A stretch of DNA of 24,000 nt, taken from NCBI GenBank assembly GCA_036003985.1, contig DASYRW010000313.1:8727-32726 (forward strand). Direction: 5' to 3'. The stretch comes from Thermoplasmatota archaeon (lineage in GTDB: Archaea > Thermoplasmatota > SW-10-69-26 > JACQPN01 > JAIVGT01). Under the pieces are notes generated by a model. It was not told the origin of the DNA. It saw only the letters and a program-made list of their open reading frames with translations, and ran no database searches. Below, piece by piece: positions 6,723-18,258 of the stretch (position 1 is its first letter; the number at the start of each line of letters is the position of its first letter). The position numbers and the translations under genes are program-made.

Positions 6723-7307
6723 CTACCACGGGACTTCCTTGTGCCCGTAGCGGTGGCCGAGCCAGTTGGTCGCGAGGTGCAGCGCCGGCGTGAGCACGAG
6801 GATGATGACGGCGAGCGGCAGCGTGAGGGTCGCGCGGAGCCAGTTCTCCTGTGCAAGGCCAGCCCAGATCGCGGCCTCGCCCAGCAGGAGCGCGAGCGCC
6901 CACGCGCCGAGCACGAAGTCGAGCTGGTCGGGGCCGTACCACGCCGCGCCGCGCTCCTTGCCCACGCGTCGCTTGACGAAGCTCTTGGTCGCGTCGCCGA
7001 GCAGCGCGCCGAAGGCGAGGCCGGCCGCGATGGGCACCCACGCCGCACCGGGCCCGAAGTCCGTGAGGCCGTTGCCGGCGAGGGGCGCGAGCGCGTGCAG
7101 CGCGGCGCCGACGAGCACGCCCGCGAGCCCGCCGAGGAGGAAGCCCCGCCACGTCTTGCCGGGCCCGAACACGCGCCGCCCGTCGCGCAGCACCTTGCCG
7201 AAGTCCATGGGCGTGCCGCCGCCGAGCTTCACGGCGCTCATGTTGGCCGCGTAGGCTGGGAGCATGAGCCAGATCGCCTGCGCCAGCCACACCCACGCTT
7301 CGGCCAA
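6723..7307 (-). CDS. carS: CDP-archaeol synthase (CDP-2,3-bis-O-geranylgeranyl-sn-glycerol synthase)
   Basis: The 3' two-thirds of track ORF 6723..7469 reads WLMLPAYAANMSAVKLGGGTPMDFG...GKTWRGFLLG...GDATKSFVKRRVG...DQLDFVLGA, matching the CarS (DUF46) pattern. The start is uncertain. I place it at TTG 7307; GTG 7292 is an alternative. The upstream extension overlaps the VOC gene, and an AAAAGGC-type box sits at 7338-7344 just downstream of the VOC gene stop. Confidence 0.8.
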   Translation of the reverse strand: MAEAWVWLAQAIWLMLPAYAANMSAVKLGGGTPMDFGKVLRDGRRVFGPGKTWRGFLLGGLAGVLVGAALHALAPLAGNGLTDFGPGAAWVPIAAGLAFGALLGDATKSFVKRRVGKERGAAWYGPDQLDFVLGAWALALLLGEAAIWAGLAQENWLRATLTLPLAVIILVLTPALHLATNWLGHRYGHKEVPW

Positions 7308-13252: not shown

Positions 13253-13465
13253 ATGCGTGTCCTCATCCCCGTGCTGCTGCTGGCCGCTGCGCTTCCGGCG
13301 CTTTCGCCAAGCGCGTCGGCGTGCCATATCGTGCTGCCCCTCGATGTGGAATGGTCCGACGGCGGCAAGAGCTGGGTGCATGTGTACTACGACAGCTGCC
13401 TCCACATGCTCTGCGTCGACAGCGCCTTCGGGCTGCTGGCGATCCACGAGTGCGCGCCCGGCTAG
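13253..13465 (+). CDS. small secreted Cys-containing protein (70 aa)
   Basis: MRVLIPVLLLAAALPALSPSASA is a signal-peptide-like N-terminus. The mature part has 4 Cys. A GGAGG lies 6 nt upstream of the ATG (13242-13246). No family recognised. Confidence 0.5.
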   Translation: MRVLIPVLLLAAALPALSPSASACHIVLPLDVEWSDGGKSWVHVYYDSCLHMLCVDSAFGLLAIHECAPG

Positions 13466-14455
13466 CTAGCGGATCCCGAACAGCGCCTGGCCCAGCAGCA
13501 GCACCGCGAGCAACCGCAGCGCGAAGCCGGCGAAGACGGCCAGCAGGAACGGCCTCAGCCGCAGCCCCATGCCGCTGAACAGGTAGACGGGGACGATGTC
13601 GAAGGGGCTGAACGGCACGGCCAGCATGAGGCCCAGCGCCGCGTACCCAAACCGGCGCGCGAACCGCTCCGCCCGGGCCATGAATGCGCGCGTGAGCCGG
13701 CTCCGCGCCTCGAGTTTCGCGACGCCCGCGCGCAGCGCGGGGCCGAGCGCGTAGATGATCCAGGCTCCTGCCGCCTTGCCCGCCGCGCTCGACAGCACCA
13801 CCAGCCAGATGCCCAAGGTGCCCACCGACGCGAGCGCGATCGGCTCGACGGGGATCGGCAGGAAGAGGTTCGTGCCCATCGAGGCGAAGTAGAGCGTGAA
13901 CAGCACGTTCCACGCGACGCTCAGCCGCGGCGAGGCAAGCGCAAGCCCGAGCAGGCCCACGAGCCACACCCAGACCGTGCTGAGCAGCACCAGGAACAGC
14001 AGCGTGCGCTGCATGCGCGGCGTGAGGAGCTGCGGGTGCCGGACTGCGCGCGCGAAGTCGCGGCGCGTCGCGGGGTCGCTGAAGATGTCCACGACCTCGT
14101 GGTACTGCTTCCACACGACGTCGGCGAAGCGGTTCGCGGCGCGGCCCGGGTGGCCCAGGCGGTGCAACCGTTCGCCCGTGGCGCCGAGGGGGTGGCCCTC
14201 GAGGCGGGTCGTGCTCGTGACCACCACCTGGCCGCCCTCGACGCGCACGAGGTCCTGGAGCAGCAGGTGCTCGCGGTCGGCGAGGATGTGGCCGTGCTCG
14301 ATCCGGAACTCGCCCGGGGCTGGCAGCGGCGTGGCCACCCACGACGTGGGGACGGACTCGCCGCCCTCCAGCAAGCCGGTCTCCCAGTCCTCGCGCTCGC
14401 CGCGGGGGCCGCGCTCCAGCCGGAGCCGCACGCGGACGCGCAGCGGAGGGGCCAT
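13466..14455 (-). CDS. membrane protein: about 150-aa N-terminal soluble domain of unknown family plus C-terminal VTT/DedA (SNARE-associated) domain
   Basis: 329 aa. The C-terminal half has several TM helices with the DedA/VTT-like re-entrant signatures NLFLPIPVEPIALASVG and AVPFSPFDIVPVYLFSGMG. The N-terminal domain is unrecognised. High GC3. Confidence 0.75.
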   Translation of the reverse strand: MAPPLRVRVRLRLERGPRGEREDWETGLLEGGESVPTSWVATPLPAPGEFRIEHGHILADREHLLLQDLVRVEGGQVVVTSTTRLEGHPLGATGERLHRLGHPGRAANRFADVVWKQYHEVVDIFSDPATRRDFARAVRHPQLLTPRMQRTLLFLVLLSTVWVWLVGLLGLALASPRLSVAWNVLFTLYFASMGTNLFLPIPVEPIALASVGTLGIWLVVLSSAAGKAAGAWIIYALGPALRAGVAKLEARSRLTRAFMARAERFARRFGYAALGLMLAVPFSPFDIVPVYLFSGMGLRLRPFLLAVFAGFALRLLAVLLLGQALFGIR

Positions 14456-14456
14456 G

Positions 14457-14594
14457 TCACCGCCTGCGCCGCCGCAGCGTGCCCAGCCGAAACAGGGCGC
14501 CCAGGACCATGGCGCCCAGCCGGCGGCGCGCGAGCTTGCCCTCGCGGAAGCTCTCGCTCTGGATCTGCGTGAGCTTCTCGTCGAACTGGGTCAT
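14457..14594 (-). CDS. possible 45-aa ORF (below the track cutoff), amphipathic N-terminus plus a short hydrophobic, Arg-rich C-terminus
   Basis: Read by hand: MTQFDEKLTQIQSESFREGKLARRRLGAMVLGALFRLGTLRRRRR. Almost every codon ends in G/C. The stop TGA (14459-14457) is 1 nt before the ATG of the VTT gene. A GGCTTTAGCC box (14618-14627) lies 23 nt upstream, the spacing seen at the other promoters here. Confidence 0.4.
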   Translation of the reverse strand: MTQFDEKLTQIQSESFREGKLARRRLGAMVLGALFRLGTLRRRRR

Positions 14595-14640
14595 CGGCTG
14601 GCGCAAGCTCAGCCAAGGCTAAAGCCTTGCGCGCGCGGCC

Positions 14641-16602
14641 TCAGCAGGCGCACTTGTGTCCCGCGCCGTGGCTGTCCCCGCACCCGCAGCCACCAGCTGG
14701 GCTGCCGACTTTGAGCGACACGACCGCGCCGCCCGCGTTCTGCGCCGCGAAGGGGCTCACCGTCGGGAGCGCCGTCGAGGCCTTCAGCGGGTGCTCGATG
14801 GGGCGCCCGATGGCCTTCTCGTAGTGGTCGATGATGCGCCGCTTGTCCTCGAGGGCCAGCTCGCGCTTGTACTTCGTCTCGTAGTCGCGGATCTTGCCTT
14901 CCGCGGTGACGTACTGCGGGTTCTGCTTGGCCCACTCCTTGGGGTCCATGCTGTACTTGCGCTGCACGCGGTCGCGATACAGCTCGGGGATAACGTTGAA
15001 CGAGCAGAACGGCACGACGCGGCCATCGGGCATGGCGTAGTGGATGTCGCACCGCTCGACGCGGTCCACGTCGTAGTTGTACGGGTCCATGAAGTGCATC
15101 ATGCCGATGAACAGGCTGTTGTAGTGGAACGCGCGCAGGCCGTCGTAGTCGCCCTTGACGAAGGCGTCGAAGAGCATCTTGCCCATGTCGAGGCCTTCCG
15201 GCATCTTGGCCTTGTCCACGAAGGTGTCGAGCTTCCACACCAGCTTGCCCAGCGCGGCAGCGCGCGCGAGGTTGCGGTGCTTCGCGGCGGTGATCTCGTC
15301 GGCGCTCTCCTCGAGGAACTCGAGCATGCCCTCGATGTCCACGAAGCGCGAGATGGGCACGAGCTTCCCACTCGGGGTCTTGAACACGTACGTGCCGACG
15401 CCGCAGCTGAAGTGGATCGAGAGGTTGTAGGTCTGCTTGCCCTTCATCGCCTCGACGAACTTGCTCACCTTCACGCTGATCGGGACGGTGAAGAAGTCGC
15501 GCTTGGCGATCTCCCCGTTGGTCTGCTCCTCGATCTTCTGGCACGCGCCGGGGATCGTGATGCGCTGGCGCTCGCGGAGCTTGTCGGGCATGCGGCCCAC
15601 CAGGCTCACGGGCTGGAAGTTCACGGCCCTGACGATGTCGAGGTTCGCGGCGCCGAACCTGATGATGTCGCCCAGCTCGTGGTCGTTCACGCCGCCGATG
15701 ACGGTCGGCACCAGCACGACCCCGATGGGCGCGCGCCGCGCCGCGTCCAGCGCGGCGGGCATCTCCCAGAAGTTCTTGGGGTTCGTCTTGGGCGTGACGC
15801 CGTCGAAGCTGAGGTAGAACACGTTGGCGCCGGCCTCGCGCGACTTGCGGGCGATGTCGGGATCTTTGGAGATGTTCACGCCGTTGGTGTTCAGCTGGAC
15901 GTGGTCGTAGCCCTCCTCGCGGGCGATCTTGATGATGTCCACGAGGTCGAGCCTGCCTGTGGGCTCGCCGCCCGTGATTTGCACGCAGTTGGCGCCCGTG
16001 GGCTTCTCGTTCTTCATGGCGCGCAGCATCATGCGGATCTGGTCCTGGGACGGCTCGTAGAGAGGCTCGCCCTCCTTCGCGTAGAAGAAGCAGTACCAAC
16101 AGGAGAGGTCGCAGCGGTTGGTGATGACGATGTTGCCGAGGCCGGTGTGGGACTTGTGCTTGGGGCACAGGCCGCACATCTTGGGGCAGTCGATGTCCTG
16201 CTCCTTGACGTTGCCGAACACGTGGGCCGTCTCGAGGTGGTTCGCGAAGTCCGCCGCGACGCGGGCTTCCTTGAACATGTTGTAGTCTTCCCAATACTTG
16301 TCCCACACGAAGCCGTGCTCCTCGCACCGCTTCACGAGCTTGACCTGGTTGCCTTCCTCGAAGATCACGGCAGTGACCTTCATCTTCGCGAACTTCTCCT
16401 CGTCCACGCAGTAGGGGCAGAGGGACTTGGTGACGCGGATGACGGTGACGTTCTCCTTGCCGGCAAGGAGCTCGCCGATGAGCTGCTTCACCTGCTCGGG
16501 GCTTTCTTTGACGTTGTGCGAGATCTCGAAGGGGATCTCGGCCTTCGAGCCGGGGCTCCGGAAGGTCGCGTTGGGCGCAAGCTGCTCGACGCGGGCTGCC
16601 AT
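14641..16602 (-). CDS. tes: radical SAM enzyme, tetraether lipid synthase (Tes / GDGT-MAS, COG1964-type) family candidate
   Basis: 653 aa from the ATG at 16602, with GGAGG 8 nt upstream; the track start at 16617 is a TTG. N-terminal Cys pairs CPYC...RCEEH, an auxiliary motif CPKMCGLCPKH, the radical SAM motif NRCDLSCWYCFF (Cx3Cx2C), then GGEPT, LNTNG, FYLSFDG and the C-terminal CDIHYAMPDGRVVPFCSFN. This architecture fits my recollection of the Tes/GDGT-MAS family. Confidence in the radical SAM call is about 0.95; the Tes call needs a homology search. Confidence 0.75.
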   Translation of the reverse strand: MAARVEQLAPNATFRSPGSKAEIPFEISHNVKESPEQVKQLIGELLAGKENVTVIRVTKSLCPYCVDEEKFAKMKVTAVIFEEGNQVKLVKRCEEHGFVWDKYWEDYNMFKEARVAADFANHLETAHVFGNVKEQDIDCPKMCGLCPKHKSHTGLGNIVITNRCDLSCWYCFFYAKEGEPLYEPSQDQIRMMLRAMKNEKPTGANCVQITGGEPTGRLDLVDIIKIAREEGYDHVQLNTNGVNISKDPDIARKSREAGANVFYLSFDGVTPKTNPKNFWEMPAALDAARRAPIGVVLVPTVIGGVNDHELGDIIRFGAANLDIVRAVNFQPVSLVGRMPDKLRERQRITIPGACQKIEEQTNGEIAKRDFFTVPISVKVSKFVEAMKGKQTYNLSIHFSCGVGTYVFKTPSGKLVPISRFVDIEGMLEFLEESADEITAAKHRNLARAAALGKLVWKLDTFVDKAKMPEGLDMGKMLFDAFVKGDYDGLRAFHYNSLFIGMMHFMDPYNYDVDRVERCDIHYAMPDGRVVPFCSFNVIPELYRDRVQRKYSMDPKEWAKQNPQYVTAEGKIRDYETKYKRELALEDKRRIIDHYEKAIGRPIEHPLKASTALPTVSPFAAQNAGGAVVSLKVGSPAGGCGCGDSHGAGHKCAC

Positions 16603-16692: not shown

Positions 16693-17247
16693 ATGACGGG
16701 TTCAACTCAAGCCGAGCGGAAAGCCAAAGCAACTAGCACGGCCAGCAAGGCCGCGCCCGCGGAAATCAAGGACAAACTGTACAGCAGCTTCGCCAACGTC
16801 GCGGCGCTCATGGGCTACAGCGAGGTCCACGGCCGCATCATCGCCGCGTTGACCGCGGACGGCGGCCCCGTGTCGCTCGGCGACCTCGCCAAAGAGACCG
16901 GCTACAGCCTCAGCAGCATCTCCACCAGCCTCGACTTGCTGGAGGTGCTCGGCATGGTCCGCAAGGTCAAGGTCGCGGGCGACCGGCGCGTCTTCGTCCA
17001 GCTCGACGGCGACTTGCTCGAGGGCATGAAGCGCGCCATCGTGATGAAGGGCCAGAAGGGCGTCGAGAACGCGTTCAAGGAGTTCACCAAGTACGAGGCC
17101 GCGCTGGCCACCATGCCCGAGAGCGACGACCGAGCGAAGATCGCCAACGTCCTCGCGACGCTGCGCAGCGAGCTGGAGCGGCTGCAGGCGTACCTCGAGC
17201 TGCTGGGCGCGATCCAGCTGCCGAGGGAGCCGCCGGTGCGGCGGTAG
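16693..17247 (+). CDS. GbsR/MarR-like winged-helix transcriptional regulator
   Basis: 187-aa track ORF. The core YSSFANVAALMGYSEVHGRIIAALTADGGPVSLGDLAKETGYSLSSISTSLDLLEVLGMVRKV matches the GbsR (COG1510) style wHTH. ATG at 16693; the alternative TTG at 16684 lies 26 nt from the CTTATCAA box. Divergent from the tes-like gene. Confidence 0.8.
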   Translation: MTGSTQAERKAKATSTASKAAPAEIKDKLYSSFANVAALMGYSEVHGRIIAALTADGGPVSLGDLAKETGYSLSSISTSLDLLEVLGMVRKVKVAGDRRVFVQLDGDLLEGMKRAIVMKGQKGVENAFKEFTKYEAALATMPESDDRAKIANVLATLRSELERLQAYLELLGAIQLPREPPVRR

Positions 17248-17304
17248 CGGCCTCGATGTACGGTCAAGGAATCGCGCCACGCACGGTCTGCCTTGGCCAG
17301 GTCG

Positions 17305-18142
17305 CGCACGGGAAAGGTCGGCCCGCCCCCGGGAGGCGATGTGGGCGGCGGGCCGCGGCAAGAGCAGCAGAAAGGTGAAAGGCACCGCGCCGGTCAGGAC
17401 GCCGGGCGAACCCTTGCGGGTTCCTTCGGCGCTCCGCCGGTCCTCCGTCAGGTCGAGGCTTGCGCCTCGTCCAGACCCGGGCCCTCTCGAGCCCGGCACG
17501 CTCCCCCTTGCGAGGGTGCGGGCCGCTTGCGCGGCGGACCGGGTGTCCGACCGTTTTGGCGCTGGGTCGCGCCCCGCCTCGCGGCGGTGGCGACATCCGT
17601 GCGCGGCGGCGTGCGCTTGCGCGCGCGTCGCCGGTCGTGCGTGCACGGGCTTGCGCCCGTGGCGAGGGCGTTCGACCTCGCGAGCCCTTGCGGGCCCGCG
17701 GGCGTTCCCGGCGCAGGGACCTTGCGCCTCGGATCCTCGCGAGGATCCTGGGATCTGCACGAGAGCTTGCGCTCCCGGTCTGTCTGCCGAGGTCCCGGCA
17801 CTCCGCGATGGGATGCGTCGTGCCGCTGGTTGCCCCCACCGAAATCCAGGTAATGAGCCTGGTCCCGGCGGTTGGCTGGCATTCCCTGCTTCGGCCCCGC
17901 GAGGGGCCTACCGCGTTTCGCGTTGCCTGCGGTCGCCGCGGGGATCAGCCGCGACTTGCGGTGCTTGCGCACCGCCAGGGTCGTCCTCGCGCCGCACGTG
18001 TCCCAGGGGCGCCGCCCGTCGGCGGGGCCTTCCTCCTCGCGGAGGTCCCGCGGCTCCCTCGCGGGAGTCGCGTCCCGGGCGCGCGGTTCGGGCGCACCTT
18101 GCGCCCCTTCCGGCGCGGTGTTTGTTACAATCCGGTGCGGGG
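17305..18142 (-). ncRNA. candidate large structured RNA (unknown family); alternatively an array of palindromic repeat elements
   Basis: No credible CDS. At least 17 short GC hairpins. 12 copies of CTTGCG and several C-TCGC-G loops read as GCAA/GCGA GNRA tetraloops on the minus strand. An AT-rich TTATTTTA element lies at 18167-18175 (minus sense) about 25 nt upstream of the proposed 5' end. A pyrimidine-rich tract (minus sense, 17358-17382) followed by an 8-bp GC hairpin (17320-17354) lies near the proposed 3' end. Ends and strand are inferred, not demonstrated. Confidence 0.35.
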
Positions 18143-18258
18143 GCTTGAGGCTGCCGGCGGCAACGCTAAAATAATGGGAAACGAAGCGCCGCGCACTTTA
18201 TGGCAGCGCGCTTCCGCTGGAACGCGAAGCTTCATGGCAGGTGCGGTTCGTCTGAACC

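Follow-up and report, generated by a model that had tools for sequence, protein, structure and literature searches.

The stretch of DNA analysed here (hereafter, the window) comprises 24,000 nucleotides of a Thermoplasmatota archaeon (contig DASYRW010000313.1 of assembly GCA_036003985.1), has a G+C content of 71.8%, with third codon positions of coding frames at 90-100% G+C, and carries on its minus strand a gene for the tetraether lipid synthase Tes followed by two genes that form a closely spaced pair. The tes gene (16602-14641) codes for 653 amino acids (aa) and has an ATG start with GGAGG 8 nt upstream. It is followed by a spacer of 46 nt (14640-14595), a micro-open reading frame (micro-ORF; 14594-14457) with the 45-aa product MTQFDEKLTQIQSESFREGKLARRRLGAMVLGALFRLGTLRRRRR and, 1 nt after the micro-ORF, a gene for a 329-aa membrane protein (14455-13466), which is composed of an orphan N-terminal domain (residues 1-145; 14455-14021) and a DedA/VTT membrane domain (residues 146-329 plus stop codon; 14020-13466). 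The identical three genes are called by JGI on the window's contig, and the positions that a preliminary description had given for tes, the spacer with its palindrome, the micro-ORF and the 329-aa ORF were all confirmed from the sequence.

In that description, the micro-ORF and the VTT gene were regarded as dedicated accessories of Tes. According to the reading favoured here, with a probability of roughly 0.6, they constitute an autonomous cassette of one clade, which is found beside tes by inherited gene order. What is new is a clade-restricted DedA variant with an orphan domain and a probably coupled micro-protein, and not a new system; the cassette is not an obligatory partner of Tes.

The Tetraether Lipid Synthase

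Judged by its profile matches and motifs, the 653-aa protein is a genuine tetraether lipid synthase, i.e., a radical SAM enzyme with an N-terminal zinc ribbon. It matches the Tes equivalog model of NCBIfam (NF045702) with 673.5 bits at a cut-off of 450, covering profile positions 2-485 of 486, which places it in the Tes family, as had been proposed. In Pfam, Radical_SAM (98.8 bits, residues 158-316) and Zn_ribbon_HMPTM (46 bits, residues 55-105) are recognized, and the CxxxCxxC motif at C164/C168/C171 is invariant in an alignment of 16 Tes homologues. The protein is 82% identical to its homologue in the metagenome-assembled genome (MAG) GCA_035541015.1 of a “Candidatus Thermoplasmatota archaeon” (locus L014) and 57-63% identical to Tes proteins of Thermoplasmata, including that of Thermoplasma volcanium and proteins named Tes by NCBI.

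The C-terminus of Tes (14641-14700 of the window) is drawn out into a Cys/His-rich tail, GGCGCGDSHGAGHKCAC, which may constitute an extra metal site. The tail is present in all members of the clade and sporadically in Tes of other archaeal lineages; neither L014, the closest relative, nor cultured Thermoplasmata have it. The idea that it is specific to VTT-linked tes genes was rejected, since it is present sporadically in those other lineages.

The Micro-Protein

Almost every codon of the micro-ORF (44 of 45, counted from the sequence) ends in G or C, in agreement with the strong third-position G+C (GC3) bias ascribed to it earlier. Its product, for which neither Pfam nor NCBIfam contains a match, begins with an acidic, presumably helical stretch, continues with a short hydrophobic segment and ends in a poly-Arg tail. 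Ahead of the VTT gene, every related locus has an ORF of 43-63 aa, and a profile search recovered 23 homologues of the micro-protein, located on the same contigs as the VTT family wherever this can be checked. The length is 43-48 aa in 21 of the 23 homologues; for two, 63 aa were called, and the extra length is an upstream GTG extension in the one examined (L004). The homologues share the consensus MTQFDEKLTQIxSESFREGRLxRRRxGAxxLGALFRLxxLRRRR, with 13 invariant positions, and the median pairwise ratio of nonsynonymous to synonymous substitution rates (dN/dS), determined for the first 36 codons, is 0.42. This degree of conservation marks the micro-ORF as a real, conserved gene under selection.

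The stop codon of the micro-ORF lies at -1 to +6 nt from the VTT start in nine of nine junctions examined (eight distinct loci), so that the tight arrangement reported for the window is seen at all junctions. Such a spacing has the geometry of translational coupling, and coupling of the two reading frames is suggested by it. An interpretation of micro-ORF and VTT gene as one frameshifted gene was rejected, given that all loci retain both the stop codon and the distinct reading frames.

A homologue is also encoded in the outgroup MAG L014 (contig DATLFM010000070.1, 9775-9915; MTHLDEKLTQIHGES... (MTHLDEKLTQIHGESGLHRPIVRGRLARMLFAALARIAFARRPRRR)), where it lies 3.7 kb downstream of tes as an orphan. 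Two AsnC genes, a histidine kinase gene and a BNR-repeat gene stand between the two; the start of the micro-ORF and the stop of the BNR-repeat gene overlap. As there is no VTT gene behind this copy, the micro-protein must either predate its DedA partner or be separable from it. The BNR-repeat gene of L014 was compared with the gene that precedes the pair in another locus, L013, and the two are not homologous.

The 45-aa ORF could also be an upstream regulatory ORF, devoid of a functional protein product, with its translation, perhaps stalling on the C-terminal Arg run, controlling the VTT gene. The invariable ending at -1 to +6 nt from the VTT start would suit such a role, as would the RRRR(R) run at the C-terminus of every aligned homologue (3-5 Arg, with Arg invariant at positions 42-43) and the missing Pfam and NCBIfam matches. 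We consider this very improbable, however, given that the N-terminal 15 residues are nearly invariant, that dN/dS is about 0.4 over the first 36 codons, that a length of 43-48 aa is maintained in 21 of the 23 homologues, and that a homologue has been kept in L014 with no VTT gene after it.

The 329-aa Protein

The C-terminal half of the 329-aa protein contains the VTT/DedA domain that had been assigned to it: residues 201-323 match the Pfam model VTT_dom (PF09335) with 43.1 bits (cut-off 33.9) over profile positions 1-122 of 123, and PF09335 is found in the precomputed annotation of 22 of 22 family members. In hhalign comparisons of the membrane half, for which YqaA, YdjX and YqjA of Escherichia coli were the references, YqaA (COG1238) aligned over 122 columns with 29% identity (E 0.0019, probability 14.6%), YqjA (COG0586) over 65 columns (E 0.071), and YdjX (COG0398) over 10 columns (E 0.41). 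The family search of 5.8 billion protein clusters returned no DedA protein from outside the family at E 0.001.

Two proline-rich segments of the membrane half carry the invariant motifs T195-N-L-F-x-P200-x-P202-x-E204 and P281-x-S-P284-x-D286, both placed as in the YqaA alignment. Each ends on an invariant acidic residue, i.e., E204 in the first segment and D286 in the second, and the second motif is without a basic residue. At both motifs, the AlphaFold2 (AF2) predicted local distance difference test score (pLDDT) is about 85-96, and the two segments are presumably re-entrant. The COG1238 pattern has an acidic residue in re-entrant helix 1 and an acidic, not a basic, residue in the second (Todor et al., 10.1101/2023.01.04.522824). 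The membrane half may be classed as a YqaA/COG1238-like DedA domain, an assignment that is provisional because the similarity is weak.

The DedA superfamily includes lipid scramblases and polyprenyl-phosphate flippases (10.1101/2023.01.04.522824). For COG1238, no flippase activity has been reported; its members are considered unlikely to flip undecaprenyl phosphate, their function is unknown, indium resistance is the only phenotype cited, and 99% of them are single-domain proteins (Todor et al., bioRxiv 10.1101/2023.01.04.522824).

The N-terminal domain is conserved in 21 family members. When 1.84 billion representative proteins were searched with a profile built from 15 of its sequences, nothing beyond its own cluster was recovered apart from two extra matches, the 4072-aa STAND/ankyrin protein P0143 and the helicase-associated-domain repeat protein P0144, both of which were rejected as repeat or HGH-motif artefacts. 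In the AF2 models (pLDDT 86.7 for the full-length protein, 78.5 for the N-terminal domain alone), five long antiparallel strands lead into three helices, after which the membrane helices begin. Fold searches of the PDB with the full-length and the N-domain model gave no match at E <= 0.001, the best matches being fluorescent-protein half-barrels with TM-scores of 0.3 or less. The domain, 145 residues long here, is, hence, as novel as had been stated. It is probably cytoplasmic, because an Arg-rich segment immediately precedes the first membrane helix (positive-inside rule).

A VTT-only paralogue of 214 aa (P0022; L005 8001-8645) is encoded on a 358-kb contig of JGI sample 3300036851, the sample from which also L100 derives. 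It is 52% identical to the membrane half and is without the beta-sheet part of the N-terminal domain; neither a micro-ORF nor tes is found nearby, and the contig has a GC content of 72%. P0022 probably represents the ancestral state, before the N-terminal domain was gained.

The Spacer and Its Promoter-Like Box

The spacer contains the palindrome caaggc-ttta-gccttg (coding strand; 14629-14614, minus strand), which had been highlighted as a hairpin. While the palindrome is present, it is neither conserved nor distinctive: its second arm is not conserved in related loci, and a perfect 6-bp stem closing a 4-nt loop is seen 22 times in the window, or 119 times if loops of 3-8 nt are counted. Its first arm and loop contain a promoter-like box, GGCTTTA (14620-14626, minus strand), 26-32 nt upstream of the micro-ORF ATG. 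In an alignment of the upstream 80 nt from seven loci, a conserved box GCCTTT(T/A) ends about 24-26 nt before the micro-ORF ATG; with two further loci that carry it, the box is exact in seven of nine distinct loci and degenerate in two. L012 and L013, in which the pair is preceded by a gene other than tes, are among the seven with the exact box.

An archaeal TATA box would be expected at this position if the mRNA has no leader or almost none. Counting both strands of the window (48 kb), the motif TTTW occurs at 16 sites, and it is found at -34 to -22 in 7 of 23 called gene starts vs. 0.5% of random positions. Because the conserved box stands at the TATA position and is shared with many gene starts here, the pair appears to have its own promoter, and the box would be the TATA-like element of a micro-ORF/VTT transcript, probably leaderless.

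Near gene starts, TTTW usually takes the form GCCTTT(T/A), and its concentration 22-34 nt before start codons implies that the transcripts of this organism are mostly leaderless. A GGAGG Shine-Dalgarno sequence is found instead in few genes, among them tes and the 70-aa ORF that follows the VTT gene on the opposite strand.

Distribution of the Pair and Its Linkage to tes

Within the 5.8 billion protein clusters, the 329-aa protein has 22 family members, all of them metagenomic (JGI, Logan) and none from NCBI genomes. Twenty-one are full length, the window's own included; the other 20 have the N-terminal domain as well and are 54-67% identical to the window's protein. A scan of GTDB r232 (185,579 genomes, one per species) with the VTT family alignment produced 207 pattern matches and no relatives, and a scan of JGI metagenome contigs only two family loci. 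The pair is restricted to one narrow, uncultured Thermoplasmatota clade of 72% GC.

Inside this clade, the order MarR regulator gene (divergent), tes, micro-ORF and VTT gene was verified in seven distinct lineages. A complete tes is on the contig in the window (L001-L003), L004, L008-L010, L011, L100 and L101, and the 3' end of tes in L007; three further contigs, judged by their matching lengths, probably share the tes/micro-ORF/VTT order. In a rough neighbour-joining tree, for which the VTT-only paralogue served as the root, this order is present in L101, the deepest-branching member, and is therefore ancestral in the family. The pair and its box are also kept in L012, downstream of an opposite-strand helix-turn-helix (HTH) regulator gene and about 0.9 kb without tes, and in L013, downstream of an unrelated beta-propeller-like gene; neither contig has tes in front of the pair or at any other place.

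In the nearest MAG, L014, tes is followed by opposite-strand AsnC regulator genes, and the pair does not stand after tes. Nor does a pair follow tes in L016, which represents a different Thermoplasmatota lineage (Tes 63% identical); four small genes follow instead. These genes (L016 7693-8923; 133, 76, 69 and 125 aa) are tightly packed on the strand of tes, and the two that were scanned have no Pfam match.

A broader comparison covered 80 tes loci of GTDB representatives, with up to 6 kb on each side and less at contig ends, mostly from Thermoplasmatota but including Aenigmatarchaeota, Iainarchaeota, Micrarchaeota, Archaeoglobaceae and halobacterial MAGs. None of these 80 loci was matched by hidden Markov models (HMMs) built for the micro-protein, the N-terminal domain or the VTT half. 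Searches using phmmer with single E. coli DedA proteins were insensitive, with the positive control barely scoring, and were replaced by Pfam scans of multi-transmembrane (multi-TM) neighbours: among 60 ORFs near the 80 tes genes with at least three hydrophobic segments, no VTT_dom was present in the best 25 of 41 families, in a scan that a VTT match weaker than E 1.5e-7 could escape. Other lipid genes recognized by Pfam among the multi-TM ORFs of these loci are UbiA, CarS, CDP-alcohol phosphatidyltransferase and PAP2. A literature search returned no paper mentioning both tetraether lipid synthase and DedA. Synteny between tes and VTT genes, on which the preliminary description had made its proposal depend, thus holds inside one clade (seven lineages) and fails elsewhere (L014, L016 and the 80 GTDB loci without a detected VTT gene).

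Interpretation of the Arrangement

According to the autonomous-cassette interpretation, the genes would belong to two units, of which the first comprises tes and the divergent MarR regulator gene, and the second the micro-ORF and the VTT gene, whose transcription would be driven by a TATA-like box of their own within the 46-nt spacer and would probably yield a leaderless mRNA. The micro-protein would be translated first, with the ribosome re-initiating 1 nt later on the 329-aa ORF, resulting in joint production of the two proteins, which may also associate physically. By analogy with the DedA superfamily, the 329-aa protein would transport or scramble its substrate, be it a membrane lipid or some other amphipathic or small molecule, from one side of the membrane to the other by way of two facing re-entrant loops bearing E204 and D286. 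Together with the N-terminal domain, the micro-protein, which is basic and partly hydrophobic, might form a regulatory or partner-binding module at the cytoplasmic face of the membrane. The cassette would have arisen in, or been inserted downstream of tes in, the ancestor of the clade and would have stayed there mainly through conserved gene order.

Several observations weigh against this interpretation. The ancestral order has been kept in seven of the nine lineages that can be judged, as a functional link would predict; the homologue in L014 shows that, near tes, the micro-protein has a broader distribution than the VTT protein; the gene for the CDP-archaeol synthase CarS lies within 4-7 kb in every locus that is long enough; and, given a spacer of just 46 nt without an oligo-T terminator, co-transcription by read-through from tes is possible.

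The same observations lend themselves to the model of the preliminary description, in which the pair serves as dedicated accessories of Tes in this clade, with the DedA domain scrambling or presenting archaeol-type substrates or the glycerol dialkyl glycerol tetraether (GDGT) product, and the N-terminal domain docking on Tes. The model can draw on the same-strand order of tes, micro-ORF and VTT gene in seven verified lineages, ancestral in the family, on the short spacer without a clear terminator, on the micro-ORF homologue near tes in L014, on the proximity of CarS, and on a DedA superfamily that includes lipid scramblases and polyprenyl-phosphate flippases. Nevertheless, we regard it as doubtful. 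Beside tes, the pair is found neither in the nearest outgroup nor in any of 81 further loci; it persists with a different upstream gene in L012 and L013 and has a conserved promoter-like box of its own. Neighbours unrelated to lipids are equally syntenic: in the loci of the family, the genes for HxlR, MarR, endonuclease IV, a 71-aa ORF, a nitrilase-family protein and a MazG-like protein are, like that for CarS, found at matching positions. Between loci, Tes is 83-94% identical, whereas the VTT protein is only 54-67% identical. Furthermore, the membrane domain resembles the YqaA/COG1238 subfamily, without demonstrated flippase activity, and tes homologues alone led to GDGT formation in the heterologous host Methanococcus maripaludis (Zeng et al. 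2022, PMC8941075). Of the proposed accessory pair, the genes themselves are real, all three of them; the general link to Tes did not hold, the pair being confined to one clade, equipped with its own promoter-like box, and found in L012 and L013 behind another gene. As a general mechanism, a Tes link is unlikely.

A narrower version, in which the micro-protein and the N-domain-bearing DedA protein form a lineage-specific complex that works with Tes, e.g., by scrambling or positioning archaeol-type substrates or new GDGT between the membrane faces, appears quite unlikely to us. If true, tetraether synthesis would have its first accessory factor, and the YqaA type, the least understood subfamily of DedA proteins, would gain a first function. 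We know of no account of how two diether lipids in opposite leaflets meet for their tail-to-tail coupling, and a pair working with Tes would bear on this question.

Metal, pH or drug tolerance has been reported for other DedA proteins. The cassette could, by the same token, be a DedA-type transporter of a non-lipid or stress-related substrate, conferring tolerance of this kind and unrelated to lipid biosynthesis. This would be compatible with a fast-evolving, clade-restricted family, with the variable genes directly downstream (FHA and kinase in L008; hydrolase in L100 and L104), and with indium resistance as the only phenotype cited for COG1238, but the neighbourhood points to no particular stress or substrate, and we take this explanation to be unlikely. 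For the autonomous cassette as favoured here, wider importance is modest, and lies in the pair being a test case for the regulation of DedA proteins.

Neighbouring Genes

The MarR-family regulator gene (16693-17247, plus strand; Pfam MarR_2) is divergent from tes and is recorded in every locus that reaches that far, including that of the outgroup MAG L014; the regulator is 63-80% identical between loci and is a conserved partner of tes. CarS, the CDP-archaeol synthase gene, was confirmed by PF01864 at the position reported earlier (6723-7307, minus strand), about 6 kb from the micro-ORF/VTT pair, with endonuclease IV, nitrilase-family and MazG-like genes between them, and is found at the matching relative position in L004, L011, L012 and L100.

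The spot between the VTT gene and the endonuclease IV gene varies in content across loci. In the window, it is occupied by a 70-aa ORF directly downstream of the VTT gene (13253-13465, plus strand); in L008 (3866-8476), by genes for an FHA protein, a peptidase-like protein and a Ser/Thr kinase; and in L100 (11247-12675) and L104 (1219-2647), by two small ORFs and an alpha/beta hydrolase gene.

A Candidate Structured RNA Upstream of tes

Between the HxlR gene and the MarR/tes genes, at about 17270-18250 on the minus strand, the window contains a candidate structured RNA of about 0.75-0.9 kb, the core of which (18119-17384, minus strand) is on the strand of HxlR and tes. Homologous regions are found in L100 (6449-7320), L004 (3634-4541) and L014 (about 1000-2000), with about 75% nucleotide identity over about 900 nt in L100 and L004. 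The gap between HxlR and MarR has no consistent coding frame and no GC3 periodicity, and gene callers picked opposite strands in two contigs and nothing in two others.

Hairpins capped by GNRA loops (GCAA, GCGA, GAGA) number 13 on the minus strand vs. 3 on the plus strand, and they cluster at the matching position in L004, L100 and the outgroup L014. For four sequences, RNAalifold predicts 248 pairs, closed by a 17-bp long-range helix of 18119-18101 with 17402-17384. Of these pairs, 56 are changed on both sides, as compared to 23.3 +/- 3.5 in shuffles (0 of 500 reach 56) and 5-16 in slid controls, where the structure was derived from the same four sequences that were used to score the changes. 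An AT-rich, TATA-like box, TTATTTTA, lies about 45 nt upstream of the closing helix, and a comparison with Rfam yielded no family match even at E <= 5. The region looks like an undescribed large structured RNA, a candidate which may merit more attention than the tes/VTT finding itself.

Comparison with Known Systems

With respect to known Tes/GDGT-MAS proteins (NF045702; Methanocaldococcus jannaschii MJ0619; Zeng et al. 2022; Lloyd et al. 2022), the enzyme of the window shows no essential difference; it shares with them the full-length model match, the radical SAM motif and the N-terminal zinc ribbon. The 329-aa protein resembles YqaA in the end-to-end alignment of its residues of about 185-320 and in the acidic residues of both proline-rich segments; unlike YqaA, which is a single-domain protein of 142 aa, it possesses an orphan N-terminal domain of 145 aa, and its gene has a probably coupled micro-ORF ahead. 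With the UndP/polyprenyl-phosphate flippases (COG0586; YqjA, YghB, UptA type) it has in common the superfamily, the predicted core and the two facing re-entrant loops predicted for it, whereas its alignment with YqjA, of 65 columns at E 0.071, is partial only.

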